Notes under the pieces: generated by a model
Databases searched by the model: none
What the model was told of the DNA's origin: nothing
What the model saw: the letters and a program-made list of their open reading frames with translations, nothing else
Assembly (NCBI GenBank): GCA_963809485.1
Contig: CAWEJX010000012.1
Span: forward strand, 32,001 to 96,000
DNA from: an uncultured Acidobacteriota bacterium
Lineage (GTDB): Bacteria; Acidobacteriota; UBA6911
Direction of reading: 5' to 3'
DNA: 64,000 nucleotides
Program-made: the position numbers and the translations under genes
In this document: one piece after another, positions 14,387-61,318 of the stretch
Numbering within the stretch: the first letter of the stretch is position 1
Layout of the letters: every line of letters starts with the position of its first letter

Positions 14387-16106
14387 TCAATACCTCTCGT
14401 AATTCGGTTTGAGATCCTTGTACTTCGCCACCAGCTTGTCCCAATTCTTCGGCAACTCGATCTTTTTGGTGACAAGCGCGTTCTCGAAAAATCCCGGTCC
14501 CGCACTCCTCAGCAGCGCTATAAACGAGCCCGGCCCGCCGGCAACCAGAATCATGAGGCTTTTGTCGAGGTCCATTTTCGGTGGACTGGCGGCATTCGTA
14601 AGACCGACACTCGATCTGCCGGGGGTGCCGTGTGCCGCCAGGTATTCTCTGACTTTCTGCTTCGTGTATCCTTCACTCGACAATACCTTGGCCCAGGAAG
14701 GTATAAGAATCAGACTGGACATGGTGCTGCTAACCATGCCCGAAAGCGTATCCAGAATCCCCTTTGCGTCCGTCCCGCCCGGGACCGTCTGTATGAATGT
14801 GTTGGGGAAAAACACGGTGACGGTGCTGTCCTCCTTTTGTGAAGCCCCGCTCGACGCTGAGAGGCTCCCAGGGGCTCGCCTCCTCATCCTCCCCGATCAC
14901 CAGGCTGTACTTGCCCGGGTTGCCGATCACCCCCATGTCCTCGATGGCCTTCCTTGCCCCGCCGATGTTCTTGACGATCAGCCCGACGGCCCGGCCGATG
15001 GCGGCATTCGCGATATTTCCCGGACTCAAGGCGCCTGAGCTGCAGTTGACGTGGATGTCGTTTCTTATCCGACCGTTGATGGCAAGAAAAGGCGCCCACG
15101 AACCCGTGCTCACCTCAAAGGTATCAAACCTGGTTTTCGGATCGGCCAAAGCCTGCACCGTGGCGATCAGAACCGGCATGTAGGTGGGAAGCGCACCGGC
15201 CATCACCGCATTAATCGCGATCTTTTCGATCGTGGCCTTTCCTTTTCTCGGGATGATCGTGGCCACAATATGGTCCGGCGGCAGATCCGTCCCCGTCATC
15301 ATCTCCGCCACGACCTCCTCGGTCGGCGGTATGATCGGCAGACCGTCGGTCCATCCCTTGCTGTAGTAGAACCGGTTTACCTCCTGCAGGCTTCCTTTAA
15401 ATGCCACTCTCGGGGTCTTGCCCGTTTGCTGCTTCGGAGATTTCTCCTCGGCAGTCAGCGGGCTCGTTAAGGCCTCGACCACATCCTTCATGGCCGCCGC
15501 GACACCCTCTTCAATTTCCGCCTTGACGGTGGATTCACATGCCACCGATTCCCCAACGACTCTGATTCCGGGCATTCCCTTGCTCGATGCTGCCGATTGA
15601 GCATCGGTAACAAATCCATGATTAGCCAGTAGCACGACCGGCTTGCCAAAGTCCTCGATCGCTATCCCGTTGTAGGCGAGGTACTTTGTGCAGGACCCTC
15701 AATCACCGACTACGGCAATGGCCGCGTCTATCCCTTTGGCCCAGGCCGTGAACTTTTCCTTGTTCTTCGTCTCCATCTCATTGACGTTCGCCTGGGTGGA
15801 ATGGAATTTGATTATCTGAATATCGGGGTACATGGCCTTCAATCGTCTCTCGATTGATTCCGCCATCGGCATTGCCGCCCGCTTGGGATTGACGAATAAT
15901 CCGATTTTCTTTCCCGCCAGGGTCTGAATCCTCGGGGAAATCCCCCGGAGCGGGATCGGATCAGCGTCCGCCCAGGGACTGAGAACTTCAAATTGAGTGG
16001 CTGGCGACTTGGTTTTGGAACTCGCCGCCCCTTGGGCCCTGGATACATCCTGGACCGTCAGTACGGCTAGCATCCCTATGGAAAGCGCCGATAATATTCT
16101 ACGCAT
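14387..16106 (-). CDS. UGSC-family selenoprotein with signal peptide, copy A (Sec TGA at 15699-15701; extra G at 14839)
   Basis: VVGD-TGA-GSCTKYLAYNGIAIEDFGKPVV reads in frame into ORF 15635; hairpin after the TGA; nearly identical to intact copy B. Confidence 0.88.
15644..15692 (-). promoter_or_regulatory. SECIS-like stem-loop (copy A; identical in copy B at 41177-41225)
   Basis: TGC-A-CAAAGT-A-CCTCG ... CGAGG-ACTTTG-GCA pairing starts 7 nt after the TGA. Confidence 0.6.
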
Positions 16107-16225
16107 GGCAGACTCCTTCTCCTTTCAAAATGGCTCGGTGCCATCGCGATTATATCCGTAAAACACACAAAAGGCACGCTACACTGGATTCGCGTGGTCG
16201 GAGGAGTGCAATCACCTAAAATTGA

Positions 16226-17794
16226 CTATTGCCCGCCGCTTTTCTTCACCTGTTCTCCAAGCCAGGATATGTAGGCGTCGAATACTTTTACCTTATCCAG
16301 GTCAGGCAAAGGTCTTGCGCCGGGAGTTGCGTCGAACACCATCACCTTGGGATCGCTCTCTGCAAAGGCCGGCCATTTGGGAAGATCAGGGCCGTTCGGG
16401 TCGCCGTTTTTGGCGAAGTTGATCCAATAGGAGCTGATCCTGTCGGATAGTTTCAGGTCTTCCGGTTTGGGCGCCTCTTGCCGTCCGCCAAGGGTCTGGA
16501 ATGCATACGGCACATCGCTGCCATGCCCGGAACCGACATCCGGCGAAGTGTGGACGTAATCGAAGAGGTATTCGAATGCTTTGCCCTTCCCTTTCCGGGA
16601 CTGCAGACGAGCCCAGGTCCAGGTGTTCCAGGCGGACGAGCTCTGTCTGACTGCTCTTGACGCCTTCGCAGCCTCGGCATCCGTTGAGTGAGGATACGCG
16701 CTCAAAATGGCATCGGCCTGAGGGCCGTATTGCGACCTTATCTGTTTCTCGAATGCCTCCGGCGTGATATTGCCACGCCCGCCCATGGTTGCCGCTTCCT
16801 CCGATGTGTTGCCGAGTAAAATGGGCGTGTCGTTAAAACGTCCTGCCTGATATAAAGAATAGAGGTCGCTCGGGACGATATACCCGTCGGCCGCTGGCCG
16901 GAATCCGCCGCCTCCCATTCCGCCCTCCAGGCCTTTCTGGATCTCCTCTGCGCTCATCGCCCGGGCCGCCTTGATATCCGCCGCTCCCAGCTTTTTCAGA
17001 AATTCTTCGCCTCTCGACTCCGCCAGCTTGAGTGCCGGGACTCCCATGCCTGCGCCCGCCTGATTTGAAGTCTGCAGCGGGGCAAACGATCCTCCGCTCA
17101 TGCAGATGGCTCGGTGGAAAAGACCTTTTGTGATCGGGGAAGCCGCCAGCATGCTGACCGCCCCGCCGCCGGCCGAGTGGCCGAAGATCGTGACGTTGGA
17201 AGAGTCGCCTCCAAACCTGGCAACATTCTCTTTTACCCATTTCAAGCCCGCAATCATGTCCTCCAGCCCATAGGTCCCCGACCCCTTGCCGCTTTCACGG
17301 CTGAGTTCCGGGTGCGCGAGGAATCCGAAAGGGCCGACACGATACGCGACGCTGACAAACACTACTCCCTTTTTGGCGAAACCCGTTCCATCATATATGG
17401 GGATGCTGGTGGAGCCGCCGCTAAAGCCTCCTCCATAAATCCAGAAGATGACCGGAAGTTTTTCGCCCGGCCTTTTTGCGGGTGTCCAAACATTCAGGTA
17501 CAGGCAGTCTTCGCCGACCGGCGCGGTATTCCCCATTGAGTTGGCGGCCTGCATGCAGGCGAGCCCATAAGCGTCCGCCTTCCTGATGCCTGTCCAGGCT
17601 TGCACCGGCGCGGGCGCCTTCCATCGCAACTCTCCCACCGGTGGCGCCGCAAATGGAATCCCCTTGAATATCGAAATGCCTTCGGCAACAACACCCTGCA
17701 CTTCGCCTCCGGTCACCTTAGCCGTTTGAATCTGCGAAAATGCGGTCTGGGCAAAAGCACTTGTCAGGAAAGCAACGAATAAAACCTTTTTCAT
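16226..17794 (-). CDS. Type-B carboxylesterase, signal peptide
   Basis: FKGIPFAAPP, EDCLYLNVW, YGGGF, GHSAG, GHGSD. Confidence 0.95.
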   Translation of the reverse strand: MKKVLFVAFLTSAFAQTAFSQIQTAKVTGGEVQGVVAEGISIFKGIPFAAPPVGELRWKAPAPVQAWTGIRKADAYGLACMQAANSMGNTAPVGEDCLYLNVWTPAKRPGEKLPVIFWIYGGGFSGGSTSIPIYDGTGFAKKGVVFVSVAYRVGPFGFLAHPELSRESGKGSGTYGLEDMIAGLKWVKENVARFGGDSSNVTIFGHSAGGGAVSMLAASPITKGLFHRAICMSGGSFAPLQTSNQAGAGMGVPALKLAESRGEEFLKKLGAADIKAARAMSAEEIQKGLEGGMGGGGFRPAADGYIVPSDLYSLYQAGRFNDTPILLGNTSEEAATMGGRGNITPEAFEKQIRSQYGPQADAILSAYPHSTDAEAAKASRAVRQSSSAWNTWTWARLQSRKGKGKAFEYLFDYVHTSPDVGSGHGSDVPYAFQTLGGRQEAPKPEDLKLSDRISSYWINFAKNGDPNGPDLPKWPAFAESDPKVMVFDATPGARPLPDLDKVKVFDAYISWLGEQVKKSGGQ

Positions 17795-17931
17795 TTCCAC
17801 CTCCCACCGGAGCACTGATGCTGTCCGATTAAGGCCGAACTAGTCAACAGAGGCAAAACGATTGCATACGGCTTGAGCCCCAATTTGAATCTTTCCGCTC
17901 ATTCCGAATTTCCGTTTAATCTCAATGCGGA

Positions 17932-19716: not shown

Positions 19717-20034
19717 TGTGCTGCTCCTTTTTGCGGATAAAACGAGGGCGCCTGGGCCGATTACTAATCCCACCACACTCATTGCGTGTCGAAGGAATAT
19801 GACGTGATACCTGCACTCCTATTACCGGACCAGGCACGAACGGAGAACTCCAGGATGTTTTGCTTTTCCAATAATTCGCGCTATTTAAAACCTGTGGCAT
19901 GCGGGATCATCGAGGATCGAGCTGTCATCGCGTTCGCTCCTTCATCGAATTTTCCCACGCCCTTTTTAGCCGTCCGGGATTTGATTCCGCTGATTGAGAT
20001 TACGGGCTCCACTCAGATGCTACCAGGATAGCAT

Positions 20035-21827: not shown

Positions 21828-22109
21828 GTTATACATCTATTTGCAGCCTGGGGCACTGAGGGCCCGGGGGCGCCGCCGATCACGTATTCCGGTGTGCGAT
21901 TGAGAGTTGTTCTTGTCTGAAATGAATTTGGTGAGAGGCATGCCTTGAGCAGAAATTCAAATAGAAAATCGGTAACCACATCTCGCCCCCGCGGCACTGA
22001 ATCCGCAATTCGAACTGACTCCAAACCCGGGCAGAAAACCTTGCCGTCCGGAGGCAACGAGGCAATTTTAACTAAGATCGGATATTTGCCTCCTTTAAGT
22101 CCGCCGCCT

Positions 22110-23580
22110 ATGCGGAAAAGAAAAGATAGGGTTCCGGATAGGACATTTAATTTTGAAATACCGCCTGATCCAATTCCATCCGGCGATATTAAGAAAAACA
22201 TGAACGCCGAAGTGGTGGTAGTGGGCGCTGGGATAGCAGGGTTGAGTGCTGCTATTTCTGCAGCAGAGGAAGGAGCCAAGACCATCTTATTGGAAAAGAC
22301 GGCGACCGTTCAGGCCCGCGGCCACGATAACGCCTTTATCGGCAGCCGGCTTCATGAAAAGCTGGGAATTAAGATTAATAAAGACGAAATTATACTCAAC
22401 CTGATGAAATATGGAGCCAATAAGCCCGACCAAAGATTAATCAGAATGTGGGCGGAAGGAAGCGGCAAAACTGCGGACTGGCTCATGGATATGACAGATG
22501 CGGCCGGTCTTGAGGTATTTATAAACCACTATCCCCCGCCGCCGGCTTTCAATAATGCCAAGGAATACTATCCTCAATACCCGGTTACTCACCATTACCG
22601 CAATGAACGCCCCGTGGCAAAATGTTTACTGGATAATGCCTTGAAGAAAGGTGTTGTCACTTATTTTAAAACCCGCGCAAAACAGCTTCTGAGAAAAAAG
22701 AACGACCGGGTTACCGGCGTTATTGCTCAAAATGCGGATGGAGAATATCCTGCAATTCAATGCCGCTAAAGCCGTTATACTCTGCACGGGAGATTACAGC
22801 AACAACGCTGAAATGATGGCCAAATACTGCCCTCAGTCCTCATATCTCGAATCCATGATACCTACTTCTACCGGAGACGGGCATAGGATGGCAATGTGGA
22901 TTGGTGCTGTAATGGAGCCCGGACCGCATATACCAATGATACACGGCCCCGCCGGTCCACTTCTTAGTTCGGCCTTCCTGCAAGTAAATCTCATGGGAGA
23001 ACGCTTTCAAAATGAAGATGTGCCCATTCAAAGCAATGTAAATGCCGTCGAGCGACAGCCTGGCAAGGTAGCCTGGCAGGTATTTGACTCGAAGTATCCG
23101 GAGGAACTTCCGTATCATGGGATAGGCCTCGGGAAAATTATTATTGCCACTGAAAAAATCCGGCAAAAAGTGGCCAAAGCAGCAATAATGGCCGACTCTA
23201 TCGAAGAACTGGCAGTGAAGATGAAAATGCCTGTTGAAGCCTTTAAGGCTACCGTAAGGAGATACAACAAACTGGCACACATGGGGAGAGACCTGGACTT
23301 TGGCAAGCGGCCGGATCGATTGTTTCCCATTGATAGGCCACCCTACTATGCTGGCAAAAGCGGTTACTCTTTACTGGCTGTTTTGGGTGGTCTGAATATC
23401 AATTGGAAATTGCAGCCTCTGGATAAGGATTGGAAAGTCATTCCGGGAATCTATCTTGCAGGAAATACAATGGGCAACCGTTTTGCCGTAGATTACCCAA
23501 CGATGTGTCCCGGGCTTAGCCATGGAATGGCGATACACTTTGGCCGCATTGCCGGTTTGAATGCAGCTTCGCAAAAATGA
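22110..23580 (+). CDS. FAD-dependent oxidoreductase, fumarate reductase/flavocytochrome-like flavoprotein (+1 frameshift near 22750)
   Basis: VVVVGAGIAG, AVILCTGD, TGDGH, GERFQNED, IPGIYLAGN, FGRIAG. Confidence 0.85.
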
Positions 23581-23730: not shown

Positions 23731-23912
23731 GTCAGGTATCTCCGGCAAAGCTGGAGGCTTGAAAGATTTGAACCGCTCAAAGCGGTTGGACTAGTTACGC
23801 TGGTCTTGAACGCTGACTTACGCGGGCAAAAGCCGATGAGGCGCTTCCGATCCCCGCAGAAAACTTCCTCGGAAGCGCCTCATCGGCTTTTGCTCGCCGA
23901 CCCTCGCCGAAC
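23731..23912 (+). mobile_element. IS200/IS605-like non-autonomous element, partial copy 1
   Basis: CTCCGGCAAAGCTGGAGG and CCGCTCAAAGCGG hairpins; internal ~29-bp inverted repeat at 23822-23897. Confidence 0.65.
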
Positions 23913-27552: not shown

Positions 27553-27797
27553 TAGGCACCTCCGGCAAAGCCAGAGGCTTGAAAGATTTGAACCGCTCAA
27601 AGCGGTTGGAGGAGTTACGCCGGTCTTGAACGCTGACTTACGCGGGCAAAAGCCGATGAGGCGCTTCCGCTCGCCGACCCTCGCCGAACAAATCGGCGTT
27701 TGTCAGCGCTTTTATCAGCGTTTCCCAGCGTTTCAAACTACGGAGCTGTCAAACTCTTTGAGTCCCCCGGTAGAGCCCGGGTTTACCAATGTAATTA
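27553..27797 (+). mobile_element. IS200/IS605-like non-autonomous element, full copy 2
   Basis: Both subterminal hairpins (CCTCCGGCAAAGCCAGAGG ... CCCCGGTAGAGCCCGGG-TTTACCAATGTAATTA); no transposase. Confidence 0.7.
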
Positions 27798-27914: not shown

Positions 27915-28835
27915 ATGAGCAATTCGGACTATGGAGTCATATTCAACATCCAAGGCTATTGCATCCACGATGGCCCCGGAATTCGCACTTCGGTATTTCT
28001 GAAAGGATGTCCGCTACGCTGCCTCTGGTGCCAGAATCCCGAATCTCATTCTTTCTATCCCGAACTCCTTTTTGCAGAGGAAAAGTGCACCGGTTGCGGG
28101 AAGTGCGTCCAGGTTTGCCCGGAAAATGCAATCCGGGTGAACGGGAAAAAGTCCCGAACCGATCGCCAGTTCTGTAAGAGCTCAGGATTGTGCGTAGATG
28201 CCTGTCCCAACGAAGCGAGAGCTGCAATCGGACGCAGGGCAACGGCCGACGAGGTTTTCAAAGAGATCGCTGCAGATTCATTGTTCTATCAAGAGTCGGG
28301 CGGTGGAGTTACTTTGAGCGGCGGGGAGCCTCTGGCGCAACCTGAGTTCGCGGCCCATATCCTGAAAAAATGCCGGGATGCCGGATTCCACACGGCGCTG
28401 GATACATGCGGGTACGCAAGCTGGACAATAATAAAAGAGGTCCTGCGCCATGTAGACCTCGTGCTTTACGATTTCAAGCACATGAATCCGGAATTGCACA
28501 GGAAATATACAGGCGTATCCAACGAGCTGATTTTGCAGAATGCAGAGAAAATACATCATGAGATGTCAATACCGATGCGAGCCCGCGTAACAGTCATCCC
28601 GGGTTTTAACGACTCTCCTGAAAATATAGAAGCCACAGCCAGATTTATTGCTGATAAACTCTCGAATTCCATTCCTGTTCATATACTTCCCTATCATCGC
28701 CTCGGAGAGGCGAAGTGGGAGCGGTTGGACAGGAACAGTGAGACTGCAGCGATCGACACTCCCGGCGAACAGCAGTTAGCGGAGTGCCGGCGGATTTTTG
28801 AGTCCTTCGGTCTGACACCGATTGCCGGCGGTTGA
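27915..28835 (+). CDS. Glycyl-radical enzyme activating protein (radical SAM with ferredoxin insert)
   Basis: HDGPGIRT, CPLRCLWCQNPES, CTGCGKCVQVCP, SGGEP. Confidence 0.96.
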   Translation: MSNSDYGVIFNIQGYCIHDGPGIRTSVFLKGCPLRCLWCQNPESHSFYPELLFAEEKCTGCGKCVQVCPENAIRVNGKKSRTDRQFCKSSGLCVDACPNEARAAIGRRATADEVFKEIAADSLFYQESGGGVTLSGGEPLAQPEFAAHILKKCRDAGFHTALDTCGYASWTIIKEVLRHVDLVLYDFKHMNPELHRKYTGVSNELILQNAEKIHHEMSIPMRARVTVIPGFNDSPENIEATARFIADKLSNSIPVHILPYHRLGEAKWERLDRNSETAAIDTPGEQQLAECRRIFESFGLTPIAGG

Positions 28836-28885
28836 TTTATTCACAAGTAACCTTTTCCACAGGCTTTCTGTGAAGGGGAAAGGAT

Positions 28886-31288: not shown

Positions 31289-31372
31289 GGACTCCAAAAT
31301 TCCTATGGAGCATTTGCATCCCAGGAGCTTTATTCCGGTCTTTGAATTCTGTTTACGGAACTGGGGGTTGTA

Positions 31373-37280: not shown

Positions 37281-37521
37281 GTCAGGTACCTCCGGCAAAG
37301 CCGGAGGCTTGAAAGATTTGAACCGCTCAAAGCGGTTGGAGGAGTTACGCCGGTCTTGAACGCTGACTTACGCGGGCAAAAGCCGATGAGGCGCTTCCGA
37401 CCCTCGCCGAACAAGTCGGCGTTTGTCAGCGCTTTTATCAGCGTTTCTCAGCGTTTCAAAATACGGAGCTGTCAAACTCTGTGAGTCCCCCGGCAGAGCC
37501 GGGCGTTTACCAATGTAGTTA
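37281..37521 (+). mobile_element. IS200/IS605-like non-autonomous element, full copy 3
   Basis: CCTCCGGCAAAGCCGGAGG ... CCCCCGGCAGAGCCGGGCG; closely matches copy 2. Confidence 0.7.
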
Positions 37522-39650: not shown

Positions 39651-39800
39651 GAGTCAGACTTGAAAGATTGGAGCCGCTCAAAGCGGTTGGAGGAGTTACG
39701 CTGGTCTTGAACGCTGACTTACGCGGGCAAAAGCCGACTCTCGCCGAATAAATCGGCGTTGGTCAGCGCTTTTGTCAGCGTATCTCAGCGTTTCAAAATA
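39651..39800 (+). mobile_element. IS200/IS605-like non-autonomous element, degenerate copy 4
   Basis: Same internal sequence; terminal hairpins lost. Confidence 0.6.
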
Positions 39801-39920: not shown

Positions 39921-41639
39921 TTAATACCTCTCGTAATTCGGTTTGAGATCCTTGTACTTCGCCACCAGCTTGTCCCAATTCTTCGGCAACTCGATCTTTT
40001 TGGTGACAAGCGCGTTCTCGAAAAATCCCGGTCCCGCACTCCTCAGCAGCGCTATAAACGAGCCCGGCCCGCCGGCAACCAGAATCATGAGGCTTTTGTC
40101 GAGGTCCATTTTCGGTGGACTGGCGGCATTCGTAAGACCGACACTCGATCTGCCGGGGGTGCCGTGTGCCGCCAGGTATTCTCTGACTTTCTGCTTCGTG
40201 TATCCTTCACTCGACAATACCTTGGCCCAGGAAGGTATAAGAATCAGACTGGACATGGTGCTGCTAACCATGCCCGAAAGCGTATCCAGAATCCCCTTTG
40301 CGTCCGTCCCGCCCGGGACCGTCTGTATGAATGTGTTGGGGAAAAACACCGTGACGGTGCTGTCCTCCTTTTTGAAGCCCCGCTCGACGCTGAGAGGCTC
40401 CCAGGGGCTCGCCTCTTCATCCTCCCCGATCACAAGGCTGTACTTGCCCGGGTTACCGATCACCCCCATGTCCTCGATGGCCTTCCTTGCCCCCCCGATG
40501 TTCTTGACGATCAGCCCAACGGCCCGGCCGATGGCGGCATTCGCGATATTTCCCGGACTCAAGGCGCCTGAGCTGCAGTTGACGTGGATGTCGTTTCTTA
40601 TCCGACCGTTGATGGCAAGAAAAGGCGCCCACGAACCCGTGCTCACCTCAAAGGTATCAAACCTGGTTTTCGGATCGGCCAAAGCCTGCACCGTGGCGAT
40701 CAGTACCGGCATGTAGGTGGGAAGCGCACCGGCCATCACCGCATTAATCGCGATCTTTTCGATCGTGGCCTTCCCTTTTCTCGGGATGATCGTGGCCACA
40801 ATATGGTCCGGCGGCAGATCCGTCCCCGTCATCATCTCCGCCACGGCCTCCTCGGTCGGCGGTATGATGGGCAGACCGTCGGTCCATCCCTTGCTGTAGT
40901 AGAACCGGTTTACCTCCTGCAGGCTTCCTTTAAATGCGACTCTCGCAGTCTTGCCCGTTTGCTGCTTCGGAGATTTCTCCTCGGCAGTCAGCGGGCTCGT
41001 TAAGGCCTCGACCACATCCTTCATGGCCGCCGCGACACCCTCTTCAATTTCCGCCTTGACGGTGGATTCACATGCCACCGATTCCCCAACGACTCTGATT
41101 CCGGGCATTCCCTTGCTCGATGCTGCCGATTGAGCATCGGTAACAAATCCATGATTAGCCAGTAGCACGACCGGCTTGCCAAAGTCCTCGATCGCTATCC
41201 CGTTGTAGGCGAGGTACTTTGTGCAGGACCCTCAATCACCGACCACGGCAATGGCCGCGTCCAGCCCTTTAGCCCAGGCCGTGAACTTTTCCTTGTTCTT
41301 CGTCTCGATCTCATTGACGTTCGGCTGGGTCGAATGGAACCTGATTATCTGAACGTCGGGGTGCATGGCCCTTAACCTTGTTTCGATTGATTCCGCGATC
41401 GGCATAGCCGCCCGCTTGGAATTGATGAACAATCCGATTTTCTTTCCCGCCAGGGTATGAATCCTCGGGGAAATCCCCCGGAGCGGGATCGGATCAGCGT
41501 CCGCCCAGGGACTGAGAACTTCAAATTGAGTGGCCGGCGACTTGGCTTTGGAACTCGCAGCCCCTTGGGCCCCGGATACATCCTGGACCGTCAGGACGGC
41601 TAGCATCCCTATGGAAAGCGCCGATAAAATTCTACGCAT
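39921..41639 (-). CDS. UGSC-family selenoprotein with signal peptide, copy B (572 aa, Sec136; TGA at 41232-41234)
   Basis: Continuous frame except for one TGA in VVGD-U-GSC; the codons between TGA and ORF 41168 encode the conserved IEDFGKPVV segment. Confidence 0.92.
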
Positions 41640-43353: not shown

Positions 43354-43480
43354 TAATTACATTGGTAACCCCCCGGCTCTGCCGGGGGACTCAAAGAGTT
43401 TGACAGCTCCGTATTTTGAAACGCTGAGAAACGCTGACAAAAGCGCTGACAAACGCCGATTTGTTCGGCGAGGGTCGGCG
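43354..43480 (-). mobile_element. IS200/IS605-like non-autonomous element, partial copy 5 (inverted)
   Basis: TAATTACATTGGTAACCCCCCGGCTCTGCCGGGGGACTC... is the reverse complement of the ends of copies 2 and 3. Confidence 0.65.
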
Positions 43481-44763: not shown

Positions 44764-46483
44764 CTATTTAATGGTTGGGCTTTCCCATCCTTTATTTCTT
44801 TCCAACAAGTCTCGCCAATTCCCGGGCAACACGATCGGCTTTGTTACAAAATGGGCCGGGCCATATCCAAAGGTGCTGATATAGCTAATCCCATAAGGCC
44901 CCGCACCTCCCGTAACGCAGATCTTTATACTACCGGGCCCGGCGAGCAAGGGTATCAGGGCATCAGGGCCTGACTTGCAGCGATTCCCTGATACGTTCTG
45001 GCAAGCGACCAAAGGCCGGCATTTCTGCTATATCTCTGCCGTTAAGAAAATCAGAACTCGGTATCTGAATGGCATCATAGAGAGCTTTTTGCAGATCGAG
45101 TCTCGAATATCCTTCTCTGCGGATGCAGTCCAGAGTAGCTCCACAAATGACCACAAGGTTATCCATTCCCCAGTTTCCGGCAAGCCTGTCGTGCTTCACC
45201 TTTCCTTGTTTAGCGATATACTCCACTATCCGTTTTACGGTCGGCGGTTCCGGTTGCACGATATCGGGCTGCCACGACATGGCCGGCATGACGCTGATTG
45301 TGGCCTGATCAAGACCATAGCCTTCTGCCACCCGAAGCGGCTCCCATGCTCCACCCAACGCAGTTTCATTTTCCGCAATCAGAGAAACAGACTTAAACGG
45401 GCTGCCCAGCGTTTTCATATCATTCTTGCCCGGCCAGGTATGTCCCAGATTGGTCATTATTAGTCTTACCGCGCGGGCAATCGTGGCATTCGCTCTCCAT
45501 CCCGGGCTTAGAGTGCCGAAGCTGCAATTGATGTTCAGATCCTGAATCAATCCCGGGCCGCTGACGATTAATAACGGCGCCATATTGCATGAAGTGCATT
45601 GAACCTCCCTGAGGTTGAATGCAGGATCGGTGATAGCTTCAATCGCTGCTATAACAACCGGCATGTAATGAGGAAGACACCCCGCCATGGCAGCATTGAT
45701 TGCAATATCTTTTACTGTGGCCTTTATGCCTCCGGGTTCAACAATCCCGACCACATGGTCCGAAGCGAAGTCAACACCCTCAAGCATTTGGCTCACTGCG
45801 CCCGGCGTGGGCGGCACCAGGGGCAGGCCGTCACTCCAACCGTGCCGGAGAAAATATTTCTCCATGCTTTCGCGCGCTGTTTCGTAATCGCTGCCGCTGA
45901 AGGTCAGAGTTCTTTCGGCCGTTTCGGTTTCCTCCCCGGGCTGCGGCTTCCATTGTGTCAGCGCCCTGATGACCTCATCCGCAGCCTTCTCCCCGAGTCC
46001 CAATTGCTCGATTTCCTCATTTAAGGGCAGAGAGTCCACCGGGACCACGGCGAGAGATATATCCGAGAGACCCTCGCGTCTGGCAATGAATCTGGCGTTA
46101 GCCTCGAACGGCCTCGTCACCATAAAGGCGACAGGTTTGCCCAATTTCTCCAGGTCAACCGCCTCACGTGCGGTCCTCGCCGAGCTGGTTCCCGTAAAAC
46201 CAAGGAGGACGATAATGCCGTCGCTGTACTCGGCGATTTCTTTGGATCTTGCCTCTCTGAGCTCCGGTGCTACGAAGGCGGGCCACTCGCGAAAATCGAT
46301 TCTGCCGACCCGTTTTTTCAATGCACTTTCAAGCTGCGGGAGCAATGCCTCTGCCAAACCCGCCCCGGTTCCGAACTTCAGCACACCGATCTTTTTTCCG
46401 TGCAGGCTTTGCAGACGAGGTGAAGGAGAGACCATGCGGAGAGTTTGAAATTCGCCTCTTGGATTGTATACCGTCAATTCCAC
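44764..46483 (-). CDS. UGSC-family paralogue without Sec/Cys (TGTS in place of UGSC; +1 frameshift near 44985)
   Basis: DGIIVLLGF-TGTS-SART...LEKLGKPVA; GWSDGLPLVPPT, AINAAMAGC. Confidence 0.85.
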
Positions 46484-51693: not shown

Positions 51694-51708
51694 TCTCGTC
51701 CCGATCGT

Positions 51709-52970: not shown

Positions 52971-53035
52971 CATGGCGGCTTTCAACAGGCATCCTGTGGT
53001 TCGGTTGAATCGAGTCTGCATATAAATTGGCCGTG

Positions 53036-54761
53036 CTACTCAGCCGGCAGGATTTTTTCCCAGTTTGCCGGCAATTGGATCCTTTTGCTGACCGGGGGCC
53101 CTTGCTCGTGGTTTTGGACATAGCCTCTGCTGCGATTTCGCCCGGAGTCCCCACTGACCACAATCCCAATCCATTCGGGCTTCAAAAATACCGGAACCAT
53201 TCTTGCCGGATCGTCTGACTCGCAATACAGGTGTGAAATCAGCTTCTCGTCCACCCTTCGGCGCAGGCTGAAGCCGGTAAAACCTCCCTGCCAGGCGAGT
53301 CTTTCCATTGAGGCCACAGACACCTTGGAGTGGTCATACAAATACTGCTGCACGTCCTTTTTCTGCAACCCGTCTTTTGCCAGCACGCGTGCTATGCTTG
53401 GACTGATTACCAATAAAGGAAAAAATTTCCCCCAATTGACGGCCATGTGGGTCCAGGTCGACATGGCTCCCCCGAACACTTCCACGAATGTGTCCAGGTG
53501 GTCCCTGGCTTTATCCCCTCCACTGGCAATCGGCGCTGTTGCGTATACAACACTCTGGACGGTGACGACACTATCGTCGGGTTTAAAGCCGCGAGAAACG
53601 CTGAACGATTCCCATCCAAGCTCGGTCAATACATCCTCATTCTCGGCCAGAGCTACCTTGAATGTTTCACCGATCGTCGCCTTATCCGTTGTTCCGGGTG
53701 GTATCCGCAAACCGGCCACATTCCTCATGAACAGCCTCAAAAAGCGGCCCATGCTGGTATTGGCCTGGCGGCCAACTCGCATCACCCCGGTTTCATAGTT
53801 GATATTCAGGTCTTTTATTATGGGGCCATTGAGAACAATCAGCGGCTCCCAGCCGGGGGTACTGCCGGCATCCTCAATCCGGAATTCAGGATCGGAAACA
53901 GCCTCTATAACGGCCAGGAGAACGGGCATATATTCCGGTCTGCACCCTGCCATTACGCCGTTAACAGCGATGTTCCAGACCGTGGCCGCCCGGCTTTCGG
54001 GAAGCAAAATCCCGATGACTTCTTCCCGCGACCGGTCCGTAAATTGAAGAAACTTTTCGACTCTGTCGATGGTCGGAGGGATCACCGGGAGACCATCGGT
54101 CCATTGTCTCCTGATAAAAAACTCCTGAACTTCATCCAAAGTCCCCCGGAAAATGATTTGGTCCGGTTCCGGTTCTTTTGTTCTGGCCGCCTGCGTTACA
54201 GGTTTGGTAAATACCTGAATGATATTGTCGACAAGGGTACCGGTAACCTTTTGGATCAACTCTTCCCGGCTGTCTACGGACACCACGCCTGGATACTCCG
54301 CCACGGGCAGATTCTGGACTCCCAGGCTCTGGCCCACTGTCTGGACTTGTTTCAAAAAGCCGGTGGTGATAATCGAGGCTGAAGGAATGCCGGCTTTTTC
54401 AGCAACTACGCTTGCCCGCGCAACCGCGGGCGAGCAGCTGCCTCAGCCTCCGACTCCGGATATAACGGCATCACAGCCGATATTGACGAAGTCTGTCTGC
54501 CAGGGTGGCAATGATCTCGGCTTCTTGCGGGCCATGCGTATTGCCGAAGGTCTCATATTCAATGAATTTTACACCCGGATATCGCTCGGACAGTGAGGCT
54601 CGGATGAGAGGAAAAATTTCTTCCGCCCTGAAACCGTAGTCCGACAACTCACAGATAGTCTTGCCGGATAAATCCGCAATTCGAGGCGCCAGGGTTACCT
54701 TTTCAGATATTATTTTCCCAAGAGGCCATACAACTTCGTATCCCGTCTCTTGCATCATCAA
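53036..54761 (-). CDS. UGSC-family selenoprotein, no signal peptide (Sec TGA at 54443-54445; +1 frameshift near 54480)
   Basis: CDAVISGVGG-TGA-GSCSPAVARASVVAEKAGIPS in frame with ORF 54355; WTDGLPVIPPT domain follows. Confidence 0.88.
54401..54442 (-). promoter_or_regulatory. Bacterial SECIS-like element
   Basis: GGCAGCTGC/GTAGTTGCT lower stem, GCCCGCG-GTTG-CGCGGGC upper stem; loop begins with G, 18 nt after the TGA. Confidence 0.8.
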
Positions 54762-54851
54762 TCTCCCGATCTCGCCGTGGATACACGGCTTTCAGCATAT
54801 TCGCCTCAAAAAACCGATCCTCTCTATCCCAATGCAATTGGCGGATACACC

Positions 54852-56594
54852 TTATTTAATCGTCGGACTTCCCCATCCTCCGTATTTAGAGAGGAGGGAG
54901 TGCCAGTTTTGAGGAACGTGTATCGGTTTGGTTACAAAATGCGATGGCCCATATCCCCAGGTCCCTATATAGGCAATCATGTCGGGACCGGGGCCTCCAG
55001 CAACGCAGACCTTGAGGCTTTCCGGATTGAGAAGCAGCGGTACCGGGGCATTCGGGTCTTTCTGATGTTTTTCAATAACCCATTTCGGCAGCCTGCAGAA
55101 TCCCGGGGCTTCCCTTCCGTCGAACACCTCGTTTCCGGGCAACTGGATTCTTTCGTATAGCTTTTCCTGGAGTTTCTTTCTGGAAAAACCTTCCCGACGG
55201 ATAGCCTCAAATGCAGTCGGCGAAATAAGCACCAGATTGTTGTAGATACAGTTAAGAGCATACCGGTCATATTTCGCTTTTGCCTGGAGGCTAATATGGG
55301 AAATGATTCTCTCGACGGAAGGAGGAGTCGGCAATACCAGGTCCGGCTGCCAGGACATGGCCGGCATCACGCTGATTGTCGGCTGATCGTCAGGAAATCC
55401 TTCGGCGACTCGCAATGGTTCCCATGCGCCTGAGTATGCCGATTCATTCTCTCCTATCAGGGAGTAATATCTGAAAGGGCTCCCGAAGGCTTTCATGTCA
55501 TTGATGCCGGGCCAGGTTTGGCCCAGGTTCATCATTATCAGCTTAAGCGCCCGCCCGATCGCTGCATTCGCTTTCCATCCCGGACCCACTGTGCAAAAAC
55601 TATCATTTATATTGAGTTCATCGATCAGCTTTTTCCCGCTGACAACAAAGAAAGGAGCCACCTGGCCGGATGTGCACTGCACGCCTATGAGGTCAAACAA
55701 GGGATCGATGATCGCTTCCACCGCAGCCAGGATGACGGGCATATGCTGCGGCAGGCACCCGGCCATCGCCGCATTGACCGCGATCTTCTCTATGGTCGCG
55801 TTCACTCCACTGGGAGGGAACCGGGCTATGACGTGCTCGCGCGGCAAGGATGCCCCTTCAAGCATTCTTGCCACTGCCTCTTCCGTCGGCGGTGCCAGCG
55901 GCAAGCCATCGCTCCAGCCATGATTCAGGAAAAAGCGCTCCATTTCCTCCTGAGCTGCAAGGAAATCCTTGCCGCCGAATGCCAGACTCGCTTCATTGAC
56001 TTCCGGTATCTCAGGAGGCTGCGGGGACCACCGGGTCAAAGATCTGACAACCTCGTCCGCAACCTTCTCGGCTATCTCCAATTTCTCAATTTCCTCTGCA
56101 GGCGGTACATAATCCAAAATCAACGGAGCCACTGCCAGGTCTTCCAAACCTTCGCTCCTTGCAAGAAACCTGGCGTTGGATTTAAAACAGTTTGTGACTA
56201 TGAATGCCACCGGCTTCCCCAATTTCTCAATACGGATGGCATCCGGGGCGGTTCGGGTCGTGCTGCCTCCCGACATTCCCATCGCGACGATCACGGCATC
56301 GCTATTGTCGGCAACCTCTCTGAGTTTAGCCGCCCTGGCATCCGCATCCCCCAGCACCGACATTTCCCACGTGCGGAATTCGGCGTCGGGCATTCTGTTT
56401 CTCAGGGCCTTGTCCAGGTAAGGATAGAATATCTGGCCCACCGGGACGCGGTTTCTGAGGATGCCGATCTTCACCCCATTCAGGTCCTTCAGACGAGGCG
56501 CATTGGGTATTGGAGCAATCTCCGAACTCGCCGTGGGATTCAAAACCCTCAGATGCGTTTGGCCGCTGGTCACGTTGGTATCCTCCCGGAGCAA
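54852..56594 (-). CDS. UGSC-family paralogue without Sec/Cys (SGGS in place of UGSC)
   Basis: DAVIVAMGM-SGGS-TTRT...IEKLGKPVA; GWSDGLPLAPPT; close paralogue of 44764..46483. Confidence 0.9.
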   Translation of the reverse strand: MLREDTNVTSGQTHLRVLNPTASSEIAPIPNAPRLKDLNGVKIGILRNRVPVGQIFYPYLDKALRNRMPDAEFRTWEMSVLGDADARAAKLREVADNSDAVIVAMGMSGGSTTRTAPDAIRIEKLGKPVAFIVTNCFKSNARFLARSEGLEDLAVAPLILDYVPPAEEIEKLEIAEKVADEVVRSLTRWSPQPPEIPEVNEASLAFGGKDFLAAQEEMERFFLNHGWSDGLPLAPPTEEAVARMLEGASLPREHVIARFPPSGVNATIEKIAVNAAMAGCLPQHMPVILAAVEAIIDPLFDLIGVQCTSGQVAPFFVVSGKKLIDELNINDSFCTVGPGWKANAAIGRALKLIMMNLGQTWPGINDMKAFGSPFRYYSLIGENESAYSGAWEPLRVAEGFPDDQPTISVMPAMSWQPDLVLPTPPSVERIISHISLQAKAKYDRYALNCIYNNLVLISPTAFEAIRREGFSRKKLQEKLYERIQLPGNEVFDGREAPGFCRLPKWVIEKHQKDPNAPVPLLLNPESLKVCVAGGPGPDMIAYIGTWGYGPSHFVTKPIHVPQNWHSLLSKYGGWGSPTIK

Positions 56595-56598
56595 TGCA

Positions 56599-57624
56599 TT
56601 ATTTCGGCCGGATCCCTTTCGAATAATTCACCCGGCCTACATAGAATTCCTCCTCAGGCTCGCGCGGCGTTACACCTGCCCTTTTCAGGCCTGCCCGCAT
56701 GGCATCCTTCAAGCGCTGGAACAGGAATGACGTCGGTTTCCTGAACATGCCTCCATTCCCGCCAGTCAGCCACTGCATGTATTTCATTCCCAGCATCCCG
56801 CCCTGAAACGCGGCATCCCGGGCGCCCATAATTATCGGAGTCAGCTCCCAGTAGAGTTCCATCCCTTTGGAGAACTCTCCTTGAGCGAACAGATTGAACA
56901 TCCGGACTATTCTTGGATTCTCCGCTGTCTGGTCGAAGATTACGTAGTCGGCCGGCCCCGCCCACTGTTGTCCGTATTTGGCGACAGTGATCGGCCATTC
57001 CGCCATTTCTGCGGCCTGAAGCAGCACTTGATCGCCGACACGATGGTGAACGTCAACCCACTTTCCAAGGCCGTCACTGAGATAGGCCTTTATTGCCACT
57101 ACGTTGGGTATTTGACAGATTCTCTCGATGAGCGCCGGATTGAACATGCTTGGATGAAATCTTCCGAAATCGTAAAAAGGTTTCGGCCAGAGATCGACAG
57201 CGAGGTTGATGGAATCGCATATCTTTTGGGTGACGCGATAGATGTCCTCTTCCGATTTGGCATAAAAGTTGCCCGGCCAGCCCAAAAGAGTGTGGGTTCC
57301 GCCCACGCTTTCGAAATAATTCAGCAATTCTATCGATTGATCGGCATCGTCAAGGGCTCCGAACATGGACACAAGAACTTTGCCCTTGGCTTCTTCAGCG
57401 ACAATTCTTACAAATTGCCTGCGCTCTTCATTGCTCAAAGCGCTGACTTCTAAGGCGCAAAATACGCTGAACATGCCTTTTTCTATGTTGTGCCTGACGT
57501 CGTGCCGGATCCCTTCCTCATCCAGCGCCTCGAGGTCCGGAGTGTACGAGGGTTGAATGACTCCATCCAATCCGCGATAGTGCTTTTTGGCCCATGCCTT
57601 CGCTTCTGGTTTTGTAAATTCCAT
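56599..57624 (-). CDS. DHDPS-like class I aldolase/lyase
   Basis: TPDL..LDEEGIRHDV, EER, IPNVVAIK Schiff-base Lys; lacks GTTGE. Confidence 0.85.
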   Translation of the reverse strand: MEFTKPEAKAWAKKHYRGLDGVIQPSYTPDLEALDEEGIRHDVRHNIEKGMFSVFCALEVSALSNEERRQFVRIVAEEAKGKVLVSMFGALDDADQSIELLNYFESVGGTHTLLGWPGNFYAKSEEDIYRVTQKICDSINLAVDLWPKPFYDFGRFHPSMFNPALIERICQIPNVVAIKAYLSDGLGKWVDVHHRVGDQVLLQAAEMAEWPITVAKYGQQWAGPADYVIFDQTAENPRIVRMFNLFAQGEFSKGMELYWELTPIIMGARDAAFQGGMLGMKYMQWLTGGNGGMFRKPTSFLFQRLKDAMRAGLKRAGVTPREPEEEFYVGRVNYSKGIRPK

Positions 57625-57696
57625 AAACAGCTCCTTGCAGTGGTGATAACGCGTTTTATCCGTTATCGCATATACATAGGTGTCTTCTATTTCGTG

Positions 57697-58743
57697 TCAT
57701 GCCTCATATTTTTTGAGCCTGTAACCTTTTGCATAATTTACGCGGCCCACATAAAACTCCTCCTCCGGCTCACGCGGAGTAATTCCCAGGGCTTTCATAC
57801 CGGCCCTGATGGCATCCTTTTGATAATCGTACAGACGGCCTGTAGGCTGCCGGACGGTTCCGCCATTTCCGCCGGCGCACCAGTGAGCGTATTTATCCGA
57901 TAGAGCGGTCACGATGCCGGTGTGAAAGTAGGAATCCGCCAACGACCCCTGTGCGCCCGGCCGGGACATCCCCCAGAAGATATCCATAGCCTTGTCGATC
58001 TCGCCCTTGATTAAATTGTCGAATATCCTCACGATTCGCGGATTCTCAGGAGTCTGCATACAATAAAAAGGCCCTGCGCCGGCCCACTGCTGCCCGTACT
58101 TCGGGATAGTGAAAAACCATCTGTCCGGCATCGGATCACTGACCAGGATTCGATCACCGCAAAGATGGAAAGCCTGAATGGTGAGTGCAAGGGAACTGCC
58201 GCCGGTGACTTTCATCGCCACGACGTTGGGGATGTCGCAAATTCGGCGCATCACGTCCGGCGGGAAATAACTTGGATGGAAATGCCATGTGTGCAGCCGG
58301 CCGGGATAAAACGTTATTGCCAGGTTGGTGGACTCGCACATGAATTTATACATCTGGAAAATGTCTTCTTCCGACCGGGGGTAATATTGCACCGGATGGG
58401 CAAGCGTGACATGAGTGCCGCCGACCTTTTCGATATGATGCAGCATCTCGATATCCTGCTCGACCGTGTCCTGCATGACGCTTACGGAACTGTGCATTTT
58501 GCCTTTGGCTTCGTCGCAGACTATCTGCACGAATTGCTTCCGTTCCTCGAATGTCATGCCGCAGGCCTCGGGCGCAGCCATTATCGAAGTAAAGCCATTG
58601 GCGTAAATCTGGTTGACATCGAAACGGATGCCATCGTCATCCAGCTTTTCAAGGTCGGGAGTGAAAGAAGGGAAAATCGGCACTTCCAGGCCTTTCATAT
58701 GCTTCTTTGCCCACAATTTAGCTTCTGATTTGGTGTATTCCAT
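57697..58743 (-). CDS. DHDPS-like class I aldolase/lyase
   Basis: IPNVVAMK; paralogue of the neighbouring gene. Confidence 0.85.
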   Translation of the reverse strand: MEYTKSEAKLWAKKHMKGLEVPIFPSFTPDLEKLDDDGIRFDVNQIYANGFTSIMAAPEACGMTFEERKQFVQIVCDEAKGKMHSSVSVMQDTVEQDIEMLHHIEKVGGTHVTLAHPVQYYPRSEEDIFQMYKFMCESTNLAITFYPGRLHTWHFHPSYFPPDVMRRICDIPNVVAMKVTGGSSLALTIQAFHLCGDRILVSDPMPDRWFFTIPKYGQQWAGAGPFYCMQTPENPRIVRIFDNLIKGEIDKAMDIFWGMSRPGAQGSLADSYFHTGIVTALSDKYAHWCAGGNGGTVRQPTGRLYDYQKDAIRAGMKALGITPREPEEEFYVGRVNYAKGYRLKKYEA

Positions 58744-58809
58744 ATTTGTCTCCCCGGTCCGATTGCAGATTTCCGATTGAATAAGGTCTATTCAATCCGC
58801 GACCCGCGG

Positions 58810-59863
58810 TTATTCAATCACCCTGGTAATAGAGCCATTCCCAAAGGTTGGAATAAAGCATGAATGCTTTCCCGGTCCACCCAAAACCATTACGACAAAG
58901 TCATCCTTATGGGCGATCGGCATCCATTCACAGTCTGTAAATTCACCATACTTTTCAGGGAATTTTCTCCTGTACTGGAGATTTTCTTCAGACAAACTCT
59001 TTTTAGAGAAGCGAGCATTTTCAAAAAGAAATTCCCTAATCTGCTCCTTTGAAAATCCGTCTTTGGCGATCGCCGCTGCATGTTCCGGGCACAGCATCAA
59101 GACAGGTTCGCCGGTGAAAAAAAGCGCATTGTTGCTGCCCGGTTGAGCCATAGTAGCGGCAATGGTCCTCAATAAGTCTTTGCCAAGGACACTGTTATGT
59201 TCATTGATATTGTGGGGGCCTTCCGCAGCAAACACAGTGACCGTGCTATCCCCGGCTTTGAAAGCCTCTCTCAACATGGAAAGGCTGCCACGGACTTTCC
59301 TCTTCGTTTTCGGCAACGCAGTAGGTGTATTTTCCAGGCTGACCCTGCGTGGACTTGTCGATCTCGCCCGGCATGGCCCCTCCGATGTTGATCAGGATCA
59401 ACCTGACGGCGCGGCCTATGGTTGCATTGGCTCTGACTCCAGGTCCGAATGCATTGCCTTTGCCGTTCAATCCTATTCTTTGCGCGATGGGACCGTTGAC
59501 CACGATCAAGGGACTGCAGGGATGCGTTGTTGATTGCACGCCCCGGAGCCCGAATTTCTCATCAGACATCGCCTTCAGGGCAGCGACAATCACCGGCAAA
59601 TACTCGGGCAGGCATCCAGCCATCACGGCATTGATGGCAGTCTTTTCCAGCGTGGCGGCTCCCATCCTTGGAGGAAGGATCGCCACAACTTCCTGCGGAT
59701 CCCCATTGCCGATAGCGGACAGCATTCTGCGTACCCGCTCCTCCGTGGGTGCGATGATCGGCAGGCCGTCGCTCCAGCCAAACTTGATGAAGGCGTTGTT
59801 TACAGCGTCTTCACAATTCTCAACGCGAACTTTTTTCGATACCAGCCTGCGGACGTTTTCCAC
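58810..59863 (-). CDS. Stand-alone C-terminal domain of the large UGSC proteins (+1 frameshift near 59255)
   Basis: GWSDGLPIIAPT, AINAVMAGC, RANATIGRA, QPGKY, ENEEESPW, GGPG. Confidence 0.85.
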
Positions 59864-59884
59864 CGGAGATCACCTCTGCATGAA

Positions 59885-60763
59885 TCAGGCGCTCAATCCG
59901 AGCAGTTTGGCCGGATTTTTCTTGGCCATCAGGGTAATTTCTTCCTCGCCTATGCCATATTTAATCAAAGTGACTATAAACATTCTCATGCCTTCGACAG
60001 GCAGCGGGTTCCATATTTGCCCGAGATCCGTCGACATAATGCACTTTTCGGCGCCCACTGCCTTGATTACGTCCACCATCTCGGCGGGATCATGTCTGAA
60101 CTCGGATGCCTGGAAGGCCAGGAAGGTGCACTCGATAAAAGCGCCGTTCTTTGCCAGCTGAATCAGATCCTGCTTGGTGAAAGCCTCGGAAAAAAACTCG
60201 TGATCCAGAGGATGCGTGACCACAAATTTATCGATGCCCAATCTGCGGGCTTCCGCTTCCAGGGCAAACGTCTCGGTCGGCGACATGTGCCCGCTTGCCA
60301 GAACCATATCGTGTTTCTTGATGATCGGGAGCATCGGACCGATCTCCGGCACCAGGCGCCCCTTGCTATCCAGGATCGAGTACCCCTCTCCTTTAAGGGG
60401 AAGCCCGAGTCCTCTCATTTTGGAAATGGAGTTGGTGGATGAGAATGTCGGCATCCAGACCACGCGCGCCCCTGCTCTCGCGGAATATTCGACCGCATAC
60501 ACATTCAATCCGCCCATTTCATAGTCCAGGCAGACGCTGCCAAATGCGGTGAAATCAGGAACCAGCTGGTTCACCATCATCGCTATTGGAGCGGACGGGT
60601 AGAAGTGGTTTTTTATGACGAAGGCTTTCATCCCGGCCTGCTTCGCCTGATTGGCAGCTTCCAGTGCATCCACCCGGCATTTGAAGGCGTCGGGGCCGGG
60701 ATGAAAATGCATATCGATGGATCCTGACAGCAATTCGTCATAGTCAATGATCTTCATGGCCAT
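59885..60763 (-). CDS. DUF6282-like amidohydrolase-fold metalloprotein
   Basis: IDMHFHPGPD, IKNH, LASGH, VTHP, STDLGQ, NPAKLLGL. Confidence 0.8.
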   Translation of the reverse strand: MAMKIIDYDELLSGSIDMHFHPGPDAFKCRVDALEAANQAKQAGMKAFVIKNHFYPSAPIAMMVNQLVPDFTAFGSVCLDYEMGGLNVYAVEYSARAGARVVWMPTFSSTNSISKMRGLGLPLKGEGYSILDSKGRLVPEIGPMLPIIKKHDMVLASGHMSPTETFALEAEARRLGIDKFVVTHPLDHEFFSEAFTKQDLIQLAKNGAFIECTFLAFQASEFRHDPAEMVDVIKAVGAEKCIMSTDLGQIWNPLPVEGMRMFIVTLIKYGIGEEEITLMAKKNPAKLLGLSA

Positions 60764-60774
60764 GTGTGCTCTCC

Positions 60775-61318
60775 CTATCGCGTGCCGACAAGCACCGCGA
60801 CTATGGTATCAACAGCATTTTCAGCCTTTTTTCGCACTTCCTCCGGGGTAACGCCTGCAAGGGGATGCGGAATCGTAACCAGGCGCGGAGCCGATATCCC
60901 CCTGGCCATGTGAAACTGATTTGGCCAACGACAGGAATGCATCGCTGCAAATGATGGCCGTCGGAATCCCTCTCTTTTCCAATTCTGTCGAATCGTGGAT
61001 ACTCCACGATGTGCAGGAACCTCAATCGCAGATCCCATAAACAATGGCGTCACATTTGGGCGCAAGCTGCTTCATCTCTTCCGGAGTCAGGGGAACCGTC
61101 GCGCCGGTCCCTCCTTTTTTAATGTGGACAATCTCCGCAAATTGAAATTTTTGACGGAGTGCTGCTTCCACATGATCCAAAAAAATATCGAAGTTGGGTT
61201 TGCGGTTATCCACCAAGCCGATGACCTTGCCATTCAGGTCATCCAGACACATTGCGATGTGTTCTTGTTTTACAGTCGTGGTTGCAGTCGGATCCAATAC
61301 TTCGATATATTCTTTCAC
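60775..61318 (-). CDS. Small UGSC selenoprotein (Sec TGA at 61022-61024; +1 frameshift near 60912)
   Basis: CDAIVYGICD-TGA-GSCTSWSIHDSTELEKRGIPTAII ... PRLVTIPHPLAG. Confidence 0.88.
60981..61021 (-). promoter_or_regulatory. Bacterial SECIS-like element
   Basis: ATCGTGGA-GTA-TCCACGAT 8-bp stem; loop begins with G, 19 nt after the TGA. Confidence 0.8.

Follow-up and report, generated by a model that had tools for sequence, protein, structure and literature searches.

Four in-frame UGA codons very probably encode selenocysteine in UGSC-family genes of an uncultured Acidobacteriota bacterium

The fdhF-type selenocysteine insertion sequence (SECIS) of Escherichia coli is a hairpin that lies within the coding region just past the UGA. 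This type of element is described in a review (PMC13188914). A UGSC-containing protein is named by Zhang and Gladyshev (NAR 2007, PMC1976440), and a later paper (PLoS Genet 2008, PMC2398784) covers the UGSC family together with a "UGSC/Unknown_1" fusion; the family is taken up in reviews of 2022 and 2026 too. Figure S1A of the 2008 paper presents an Unknown_1 alignment, a 60-column block starting AVNGVMAGCRPEYMP, and gives no function for it there. The family is already covered by curated Pfam (PF24696) and NCBIfam (NF041046) models, and a survey of more than 5200 genomes counted 33 UGSC selenoproteins in 26 organisms (Table 3, PMC5029168). Here we analyse a stretch of 64,000 nucleotides (nt) from an uncultured Acidobacteriota bacterium (contig CAWEJX010000012.1, positions 32,001 to 96,000; hereafter the window), in which an initial annotation had read four TGA triplets within the region 14387..61318 as selenocysteine (Sec, U) codons. 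The genes that contain them, all on the minus strand and called genes 1 to 4 below, are members of this selenoprotein family, which has been known since 2007-2008 and whose U-x-x-C motif and fused form are in print; as first stated, the finding correctly identifies a selenoprotein family that was already known, and is in that sense ordinary. What may be new is the genus-wide expansion of the family, its exported branch and a C-domain without known fold or function.

All four TGA triplets were found on the minus strand where they had been placed, at 15699..15701 in gene 1, 41232..41234 in gene 2, 54443..54445 in gene 3 and 61022..61024 in gene 4. Read-through translation with TGA as U gives AVVGD-U-GSCTKYL in genes 1 and 2, SGVGG-U-GSCSPAV in gene 3 and YGICD-U-GSCTSWS in gene 4, so the context is D-U-G-S-C in genes 1, 2 and 4 and G-U-G-S-C in gene 3. 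As had been foreseen for standard annotation, translation table 11 cuts each of the four genes into two open reading frames (ORFs) at the TGA. The PF24696 model, with a gathering score of 25 bits, spans the TGA in every case (88.1, 87.1, 71.0 and 133.4 bits for genes 1 to 4), which bears out the claim that family sequence continues in the same frame beyond each codon. Genes 1 and 2 form a 1.87-kb duplication with 96.5% DNA identity and 93% identity in the UGSC domain, whereas the remaining gene pairs show 25-38% identity over 52-118 residues; the four genes therefore represent three divergent lineages, and their description as "three quite divergent genes" was right.

It is very likely, judging from the evidence set out below, that the four UGA codons are Sec codons in four UGSC-family genes and that SelB is recruited by the mRNA stem-loop that follows. 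An mRNA stem-loop starting a few bases past each UGA would recruit SelB with Sec-tRNA(Sec), and Sec would be inserted as the first residue of the U-x-x-C redox pair. Genes 1 to 3 encode a UGSC domain fused to a C-domain of about 350 residues (Unknown_1), and in the cluster of gene 4 the two domains are encoded by separate genes. The Sec/Cys pair would cycle between selenol/thiol and selenenylsulfide and might donate electrons to, or accept them from, a substrate that the C-domain binds, and a thioredoxin-reductase-like protein encoded next to gene 4 could recharge the cytoplasmic members.

To place the four codons among their relatives, we searched the whole genome (6.04 Mb, 21 contigs) with PF24696 and obtained 58 matches, 41 of which carry TGA: 40 as U-x-x-C and one as U-U-G-G. 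Among the 52 matches of at least 350 nt that were aligned (six shorter pieces, including gene 3, were left out), a single alignment column holds TGA in 38 rows. At the Sec column the 13 rows that truly lack TGA show S, T, L, G, A, N or M, and neither position of the pair is Cys, both redox-pair residues being gone (e.g. SGGS, TGTS, SSST). Because family members carry either Sec-x-x-Cys or no Cys at both positions, the site in this genome is either Sec-x-x-Cys or not redox-active, and the 13 non-TGA paralogues look, from their sequences, non-catalytic or differently working. Two of these long-form members, identified by the PF24696 search and the alignment and absent from the initial annotation, lie in the window on the minus strand, at 54852..56594 (S-G-G-S in place of U-x-x-C) and 44963..46483 (T-G-T-S), and 11 more are found elsewhere in the genome. 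The U-U gene, outside the window on the plus strand (C13:45750-46277), reads GG-U-U-GG, with two adjacent in-frame TGAs, no downstream Cys and a strong hairpin after them.

The codon is also kept beyond this genome. Among 79 public loci related to gene 2, TGA is present at the site in 77 and Cys in none, and the other two end short of the site; TGA is likewise kept in five same-genus genomes by the orthologues of both gene 3 and gene 4, and in two genomes from other genera by that of gene 4. The homologues thus do not end at this position, since 77 of the 79 loci have TGA and read on. An alignment to Cys-containing (CGSC) homologues had been proposed as a check, and it finds no counterpart here, neither this genome nor the 79 related loci holding a Cys form. 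The proposed search for the Sec machinery turned out positive for all four components, each above its curated cut-off: selA (564.7 bits) and selB (391.3 bits), both without any in-frame TGA, selD (345.5 bits), with one in-frame TGA of its own, and one selC (tRNA-Sec, 70.6 bits with Rfam; SeC with anticodon tca by ARAGORN).

Two SECIS-type hairpins with a G-first loop 18-19 nt after the UGA had been noted, and both are confirmed, after the codons at 54443 and 61022. In gene 3 the hairpin (54414..54431, minus strand) has a 7-bp stem, GCCCGCG / CGCGGGC, with the loop GUUG starting 18 nt after the UGA, and in gene 4 (60992..61010, minus strand) an 8-bp stem, AUCGUGGA / UCCACGAU, with the loop GUA starting 19 nt after it. 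The stems encode different residues in each subfamily (PAVAGH, WWGSHH, SAVSR) at the same distance and with a loop opening with G. Moreover, in the gene 4 orthologues of the two other genera GUGGA/UCCAC is replaced by GUGCA/UGCAC, a swap from G-C to C-G that keeps the stem. The evidence is stronger when sequences are compared than for single hairpins: folding of nt +10 to +45 yields a mean minimum free energy of -11.1 kcal/mol for the 38 Sec paralogues versus -6.2 for the 14 other rows (P = 1.6e-4, Mann-Whitney test), a difference that is if anything understated because one of the 14 is the U-U gene, which is two columns off and has a strong hairpin. A hairpin after the codon is thus specific to the TGA-bearing paralogues, in line with the SECIS check that had been proposed.

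Genes 1 and 2 show no short G-loop hairpin; instead, a long interrupted stem of 17 pairs with a 19-nt loop extends from nt 5 to 62 after the codon, at 15640..15697 in gene 1 and, in identical form, at 41173..41230 in gene 2 (both minus strand), which we propose as the SECIS of the UGSCTK(Y/F) subfamily. When this stem, together with four apical pairs, was examined in 72 distinct sequences of the gene 1/2 subfamily, 87.3% of cells were paired versus 30-46% with the partner slid, and 35 cells were doubly changed versus 14.2 in shuffles, none of 500 shuffles reaching 35. These results make it probable that the long stem is the SECIS signal of genes 1 and 2.

Several observations weigh against the reading proposed here and have to be set beside these results. 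None of the four hairpins is significant in single-sequence shuffles (z from -0.47 to -1.63, the G-loop hairpins at 54443 and 61022 having z of -1.63 and -0.47, respectively), and an Rfam scan of the window at gathering thresholds gave zero matches. As to the long stem that genes 1 and 2 share, RNAalifold on 73 subfamily sequences returned a trivial 5-pair structure and did not recover it, the slid control is biased in its favour because the stem was taken from one of the aligned sequences, much of it falls on conserved codons, and the first base of its apical loop is not G. The curated cut-off of 125 bits of NF041046, an equivalog model named UGSC family (seleno)protein, is not reached by any of the four genes (69.9, 70.4, 56.6 and 105.5 bits for genes 1 to 4); they are filed under the Pfam family and not under the NCBIfam equivalogs because gene 4 is shortened by a frameshift and the long forms have diverged. 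Finally, the redox mechanism and the role suggested for the thioredoxin-reductase-like neighbour are read from the motif and the gene order.

Frame changes complicate three of the four genes. Genes 1, 3 and 4 and the separate Unknown_1 gene downstream of gene 4 each show one, a point absent from the initial annotation. Compared with gene 2, gene 1 has one inserted base at about 14839, directly past the ERGF codons; a 1-nt insertion at 54480 puts the N-terminal part of gene 3 out of frame, another at about 60910 does the same for the last quarter of the domain in gene 4, and a further one at about 59261, again directly past ERGF, splits the separate Unknown_1 gene into two frames. A same-genus genome (G015) has an operon orthologous to the one that holds genes 3 and 4, with 91% identity over 7.4 kb; in this counterpart the extra bases at about 60910, 59261 and 54480 are missing. 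We also aligned contigs over 53000-62300 (9.3 kb); they came from four runs of as many studies, three of DNA and one of RNA. Indels are listed at only three places, 54480/54481, 59257-59261 and 60909/60910, with no other listed in the 9.3 kb, and every run covering each place omits one letter at full depth, with the exception of run X1 at 60909/10, where most of the depth does so. The three DNA runs omit the letter at all three places and the RNA run at 54480, the sole place that it covers. An RNA-library contig of a related strain spans 54377-54715, across the TGA of gene 3, which is not a sign of transcription.

Neither the sister genome nor the four public runs contain the insertions of genes 3 and 4, so these probably arose during assembly; the shifts of frame in both genes, and the one in the separate Unknown_1 gene, most likely come from mistakes in this assembly. 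Gene 1 has a frameshift of the same type as the others, the run comparison having covered the other three sites. Further genes in the window are split as well, namely a COesterase gene (12626-14030), a FAD_binding_2 flavoprotein gene (21945-23580) and a PFL-like glycyl-radical enzyme gene (31373-33764) whose Gly_radical domain lies in a separate ORF, which fits scattered 1-nt assembly errors. Taken as a whole, the frameshifts are likely to be consensus errors of the assembly. The insertions at 14839 and 59261 fall on the same homologous spot, after E-R-G-F, in two different paralogues, and may be a sequence-specific consensus error; a programmed frameshift at ERGF seems unlikely because relatives read straight through.

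Among the other explanations, the one that survives best accepts the codons as Sec and holds genes 1, 3 and 4 to be true pseudogenes in this strain, so that gene 2 would be the only functional one in the window. The four 1-nt insertions are indeed not plain homopolymer slips, two of them share the homologous spot after ERGF, and the compared runs stem from related strains, not from this one: their contigs are 90-99% alike, so that absence of the insertions in this strain is not proven, a further point that counts against our reading of the genes as intact. Against decay stand the omission of the letter by all runs covering the three tested sites, the lack of any further listed indel in the 9.3 kb and the similar splitting of the COesterase, FAD_binding_2 and PFL-like genes, which fits a systematic consensus error. 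We therefore regard the pseudogene explanation as unlikely and continue to read genes 1, 3 and 4 as Sec-encoding genes whose frames were probably broken in assembly.

Three further explanations deny Sec at the codon, and the evidence above speaks against each of them. The UGA might be read as cysteine by a tRNA(Sec)-like tRNA(Cys) of the "selC*" type, since such tRNAs are described in anaerobic bacteria including delta-proteobacteria (PMC5389517). However, the tRNA-Sec-type gene with anticodon tca is single, the next Rfam match being a tRNA-Ser with anticodon tga, and selA and selD, which are needed only for making Sec, score far above their cut-offs, with selD having its own in-frame TGA; a reading as cysteine is thus very improbable. 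Alternatively, the TGAs could be true stops, in nonsense-mutated pseudogenes or in pairs of separate short genes, as might be supposed from the splitting of each gene at TGA under table 11 and from the frameshifts in three of the four genes, which could suggest decay. This can hardly be reconciled with a TGA in one column of 38 aligned paralogues and in 77 of the 77 related loci that cover the site, with a family model that crosses the codon and a complete Sec machinery, or with frameshifts that are absent from the sister genome and from the public runs covering them; the initial judgement that nonsense mutation is implausible is upheld by the same-column TGA in these paralogues and loci. The open frames alone speak for a sense reading of TGA throughout the genome, as in codes of the table 4 or 25 kind. 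Such a reading is scarcely conceivable, as 40 of the 41 TGA-bearing family genes have exactly one in-frame TGA in the same column (the 41st has the two adjacent ones), 16 of the 58 family frames terminate in TGA as an ordinary stop, and selA and selB contain none.

The Sec-encoding genes differ in form and surroundings. Gene 1 (14387..16106, minus strand), assigned by PF24696 and its 96.5% identity to gene 2, and gene 2 (39921..41639, minus strand; 572 codons, intact) encode exported long-form UGSC/Unknown_1 selenoproteins. Both sit after esterase genes and start signal-peptide-like, the N-terminus of gene 2 being MRRILSALSIGMLAVLTV; because of this export signal, their products would work outside the cytoplasm. 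Gene 3 (53036..54761, minus strand) encodes a cytoplasmic long-form UGSC/Unknown_1 selenoprotein and gene 4 (60775..61348, minus strand) a stand-alone UGSC selenoprotein, both assigned by PF24696 and translation. Directly upstream of gene 4 lies a gene for a thioredoxin-reductase-like flavoprotein (61354..62274, minus strand; Pyr_redox_2 domain match), whose product is a candidate electron donor. A DUF6282 gene (59885..60763, minus strand; domain match) is located between gene 4 and the separate Unknown_1-domain gene (58810..59863, minus strand; two frames), which was recognized by translation (WSDGLPIIAPT, NAVMAGC). The minus-strand run from 62274 to 44963 thus comprises the thioredoxin-reductase-like flavoprotein gene, gene 4, the DUF6282 gene, the Unknown_1 gene and two DHDPS-like genes, followed by a non-Sec long form, gene 3, four family-III coenzyme A (CoA)-transferase genes with a MaoC-type hydratase gene, and the other non-Sec long form.

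Elsewhere in the window, two PFL-like enzymes come after a radical-SAM activase that has ferredoxin-type clusters, the three forming a glycyl-radical enzyme cluster (27915-33764). Signs of a mobile element are seen where the window begins (572-10266), with helix-turn-helix proteins, an HNH endonuclease, a fragment of a TraG/TrwB-type coupling protein and a phage-type integrase. A short repeat, about 125-245 bp long, recurs between genes at five sites and in either orientation (23731-23861, 27554-27797, 37284-37521, 39656-39800 and 43354-43480), with 85-95% identity and no Rfam match.

An AlphaFold2 model of full-length gene 2 reached a predicted local distance difference test score (pLDDT) of 78.8 and a predicted template-modelling score (pTM) of 0.79. 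In this model the UGSC domain is composed of five beta-alpha units (flavodoxin-like), the third of whose helices begins with Sec; the U-x-x-C motif has a conserved position after the third strand, as D/G-U-G-S-C in all four genes. The 50 best VIA-align matches of the UGSC domain are of flavodoxin, receiver, TIR or Rossmann type and include no thioredoxin, an absence from the list that does not exclude that fold. A search of the PDB by sequence gave no match at E up to 1 with the full-length alignment profile, and only two chance-level matches (E 0.3 and 0.72) with the gene 4 domain alone. The best of the VIA-align matches, chain H of 8s7v, was considered as a specific fold match and set aside as not outstanding (Z 11.6 and root-mean-square deviation 4.7 over 138 residues, versus Z 10.8 for a designed protein). 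We take this chain to be possibly Mmp7 with a McrC-like domain, as an unverified lead only. The subunit sizes behind this assumption are those given in PMC12176620. In a Foldseek search of the PDB with the full model, one weak row below E 0.001 (7xky_A, template-modelling score 0.18-0.30) and generic flavodoxin-type rows were likewise rejected. The C-domain modelled alone reached a pLDDT of 82.8 and a pTM of 0.85. No Pfam family matches it even at E = 10, nor does any PDB sequence, Foldseek against the PDB found nothing below E 0.001, and the best VIA-align match had a Z of 5.0 over 71-79 residues, so no fold was assigned. In the ESM Atlas it falls into clusters without Pfam that are unnamed or auto-named "thioredoxin / thiol-disulfide oxidoreductase family", which are leads and not evidence.

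Copy number sets this lineage apart. All of the 24 same-genus genomes sampled contain the family, with 9-45 matches each, mostly with one TGA, whereas among 16 genomes of other genera of the same class two have one match and 14 have none; the nearest public loci are mostly from metagenome-assembled genomes (MAGs) labelled Acidobacteriota. The genome has 35 long TGA-bearing copies; most begin signal-peptide-like, and two of them are of the twin-arginine type. The latter, both outside the window (C12:202577-203035 and C4:294047-294559, starting SRRAFFKG... and RRAFLRDAG...), bear N-termini whose sequence suggests export in the folded state. It is quite possible, though we put it forward tentatively, that the lineage has multiplied one selenoprotein family to about forty Sec copies per genome, mostly exported, and that these constitute an undescribed extracytoplasmic family of selenoenzymes.

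If this is true, the expansion would be among the largest of any single selenoprotein family and would possibly raise the selenoproteins of the genome in number towards, or even past, the 57 and 63 genes that the 2026 review cites as the largest bacterial sets (PMC13188914), and each U-x-x-C domain would have as its partner a catalytic-looking domain lacking both a Pfam family and a solved relative. An estimate of the selenoproteome size from U-x-x-C/C-x-x-U contexts at stop triplets separating long open frames (TGA 237/6165 versus TAA 79/2447 and TAG 71/2707) was too noisy. Deng et al. 2026 (Cell Rep) reportedly describe a MAG with 63 selenoproteins, which may bear on novelty; that paper lay outside our literature search, which found no published description of a UGSC expansion. 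Because standard gene callers cut each gene in two, about forty proteins of 560-660 residues are missing or halved in the protein set. In environmental data the family is found widely and in large numbers, and a genus with 9-45 copies per genome offers natural variants and gene contexts for inferring the substrate, among them Sec and non-Sec, exported and cytoplasmic, and fused and split forms, located beside esterases, CoA-transferases or the thioredoxin-reductase-like gene.

Four described systems invite comparison. The selenoproteins GrdB and PrdB of glycine reductase and D-proline reductase work with the thioredoxin system. For PrdB, a U-x-x-C motif is listed in Table 2 of PMC2398784. They resemble the cluster of gene 4 in that a U-x-x-C selenoprotein stands beside a thioredoxin-reductase-like gene, in an operon with CoA-transferases, a MaoC-type hydratase and DHDPS-like proteins; the analogy is one of gene context alone, not of sequence or fold. 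The fdhF-type SECIS is matched by the hairpins of genes 3 and 4, which lie in the coding region and have a G-first apical loop 18-19 nt after the UGA, whereas genes 1 and 2 differ in having a longer interrupted stem whose 19-nt loop does not start with G.

For the published UGSC/Unknown_1 fusion, the printed block AVNGVMAGCRPEYMP matches the C-domains of genes 1 to 3 and the gene at 58810-59863; in a by-eye alignment it corresponds to NGVMAGCRPEYMPVL in gene 3 and to NAVMAGALPTYMPVL in genes 1 and 2. The present work differs in that the whole domain of about 350 residues was modelled, with no Pfam family and no solved relative found, and in that genes 1 and 2 have Ala (MAG-A) where the paper marks a conserved Cys (MAG-C). 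Along these lines, MAG-A occurs in the exported genes 1 and 2 (40700-40720 in gene 2), and the cytoplasmic gene 3, like the separate Unknown_1 gene, retains MAG-C. With the UGSC family itself several features are shared: hidden Markov models identify the same domain, the motif is the same U-G-S-C / U-x-x-C, gene 4 is its classic short form, and Sec forms far outnumber Cys forms in both data sets (255 versus 21 in the ocean survey, PMC2398784; 77 versus 0 in the loci here). The copies described here differ from it in that they mostly start with an export signal, that the gene 2 model has five beta-alpha units and no thioredoxin among its 50 best structural matches, and that this one genome holds 41 TGA-bearing genes versus 33 in 26 organisms (Table 3, PMC5029168).

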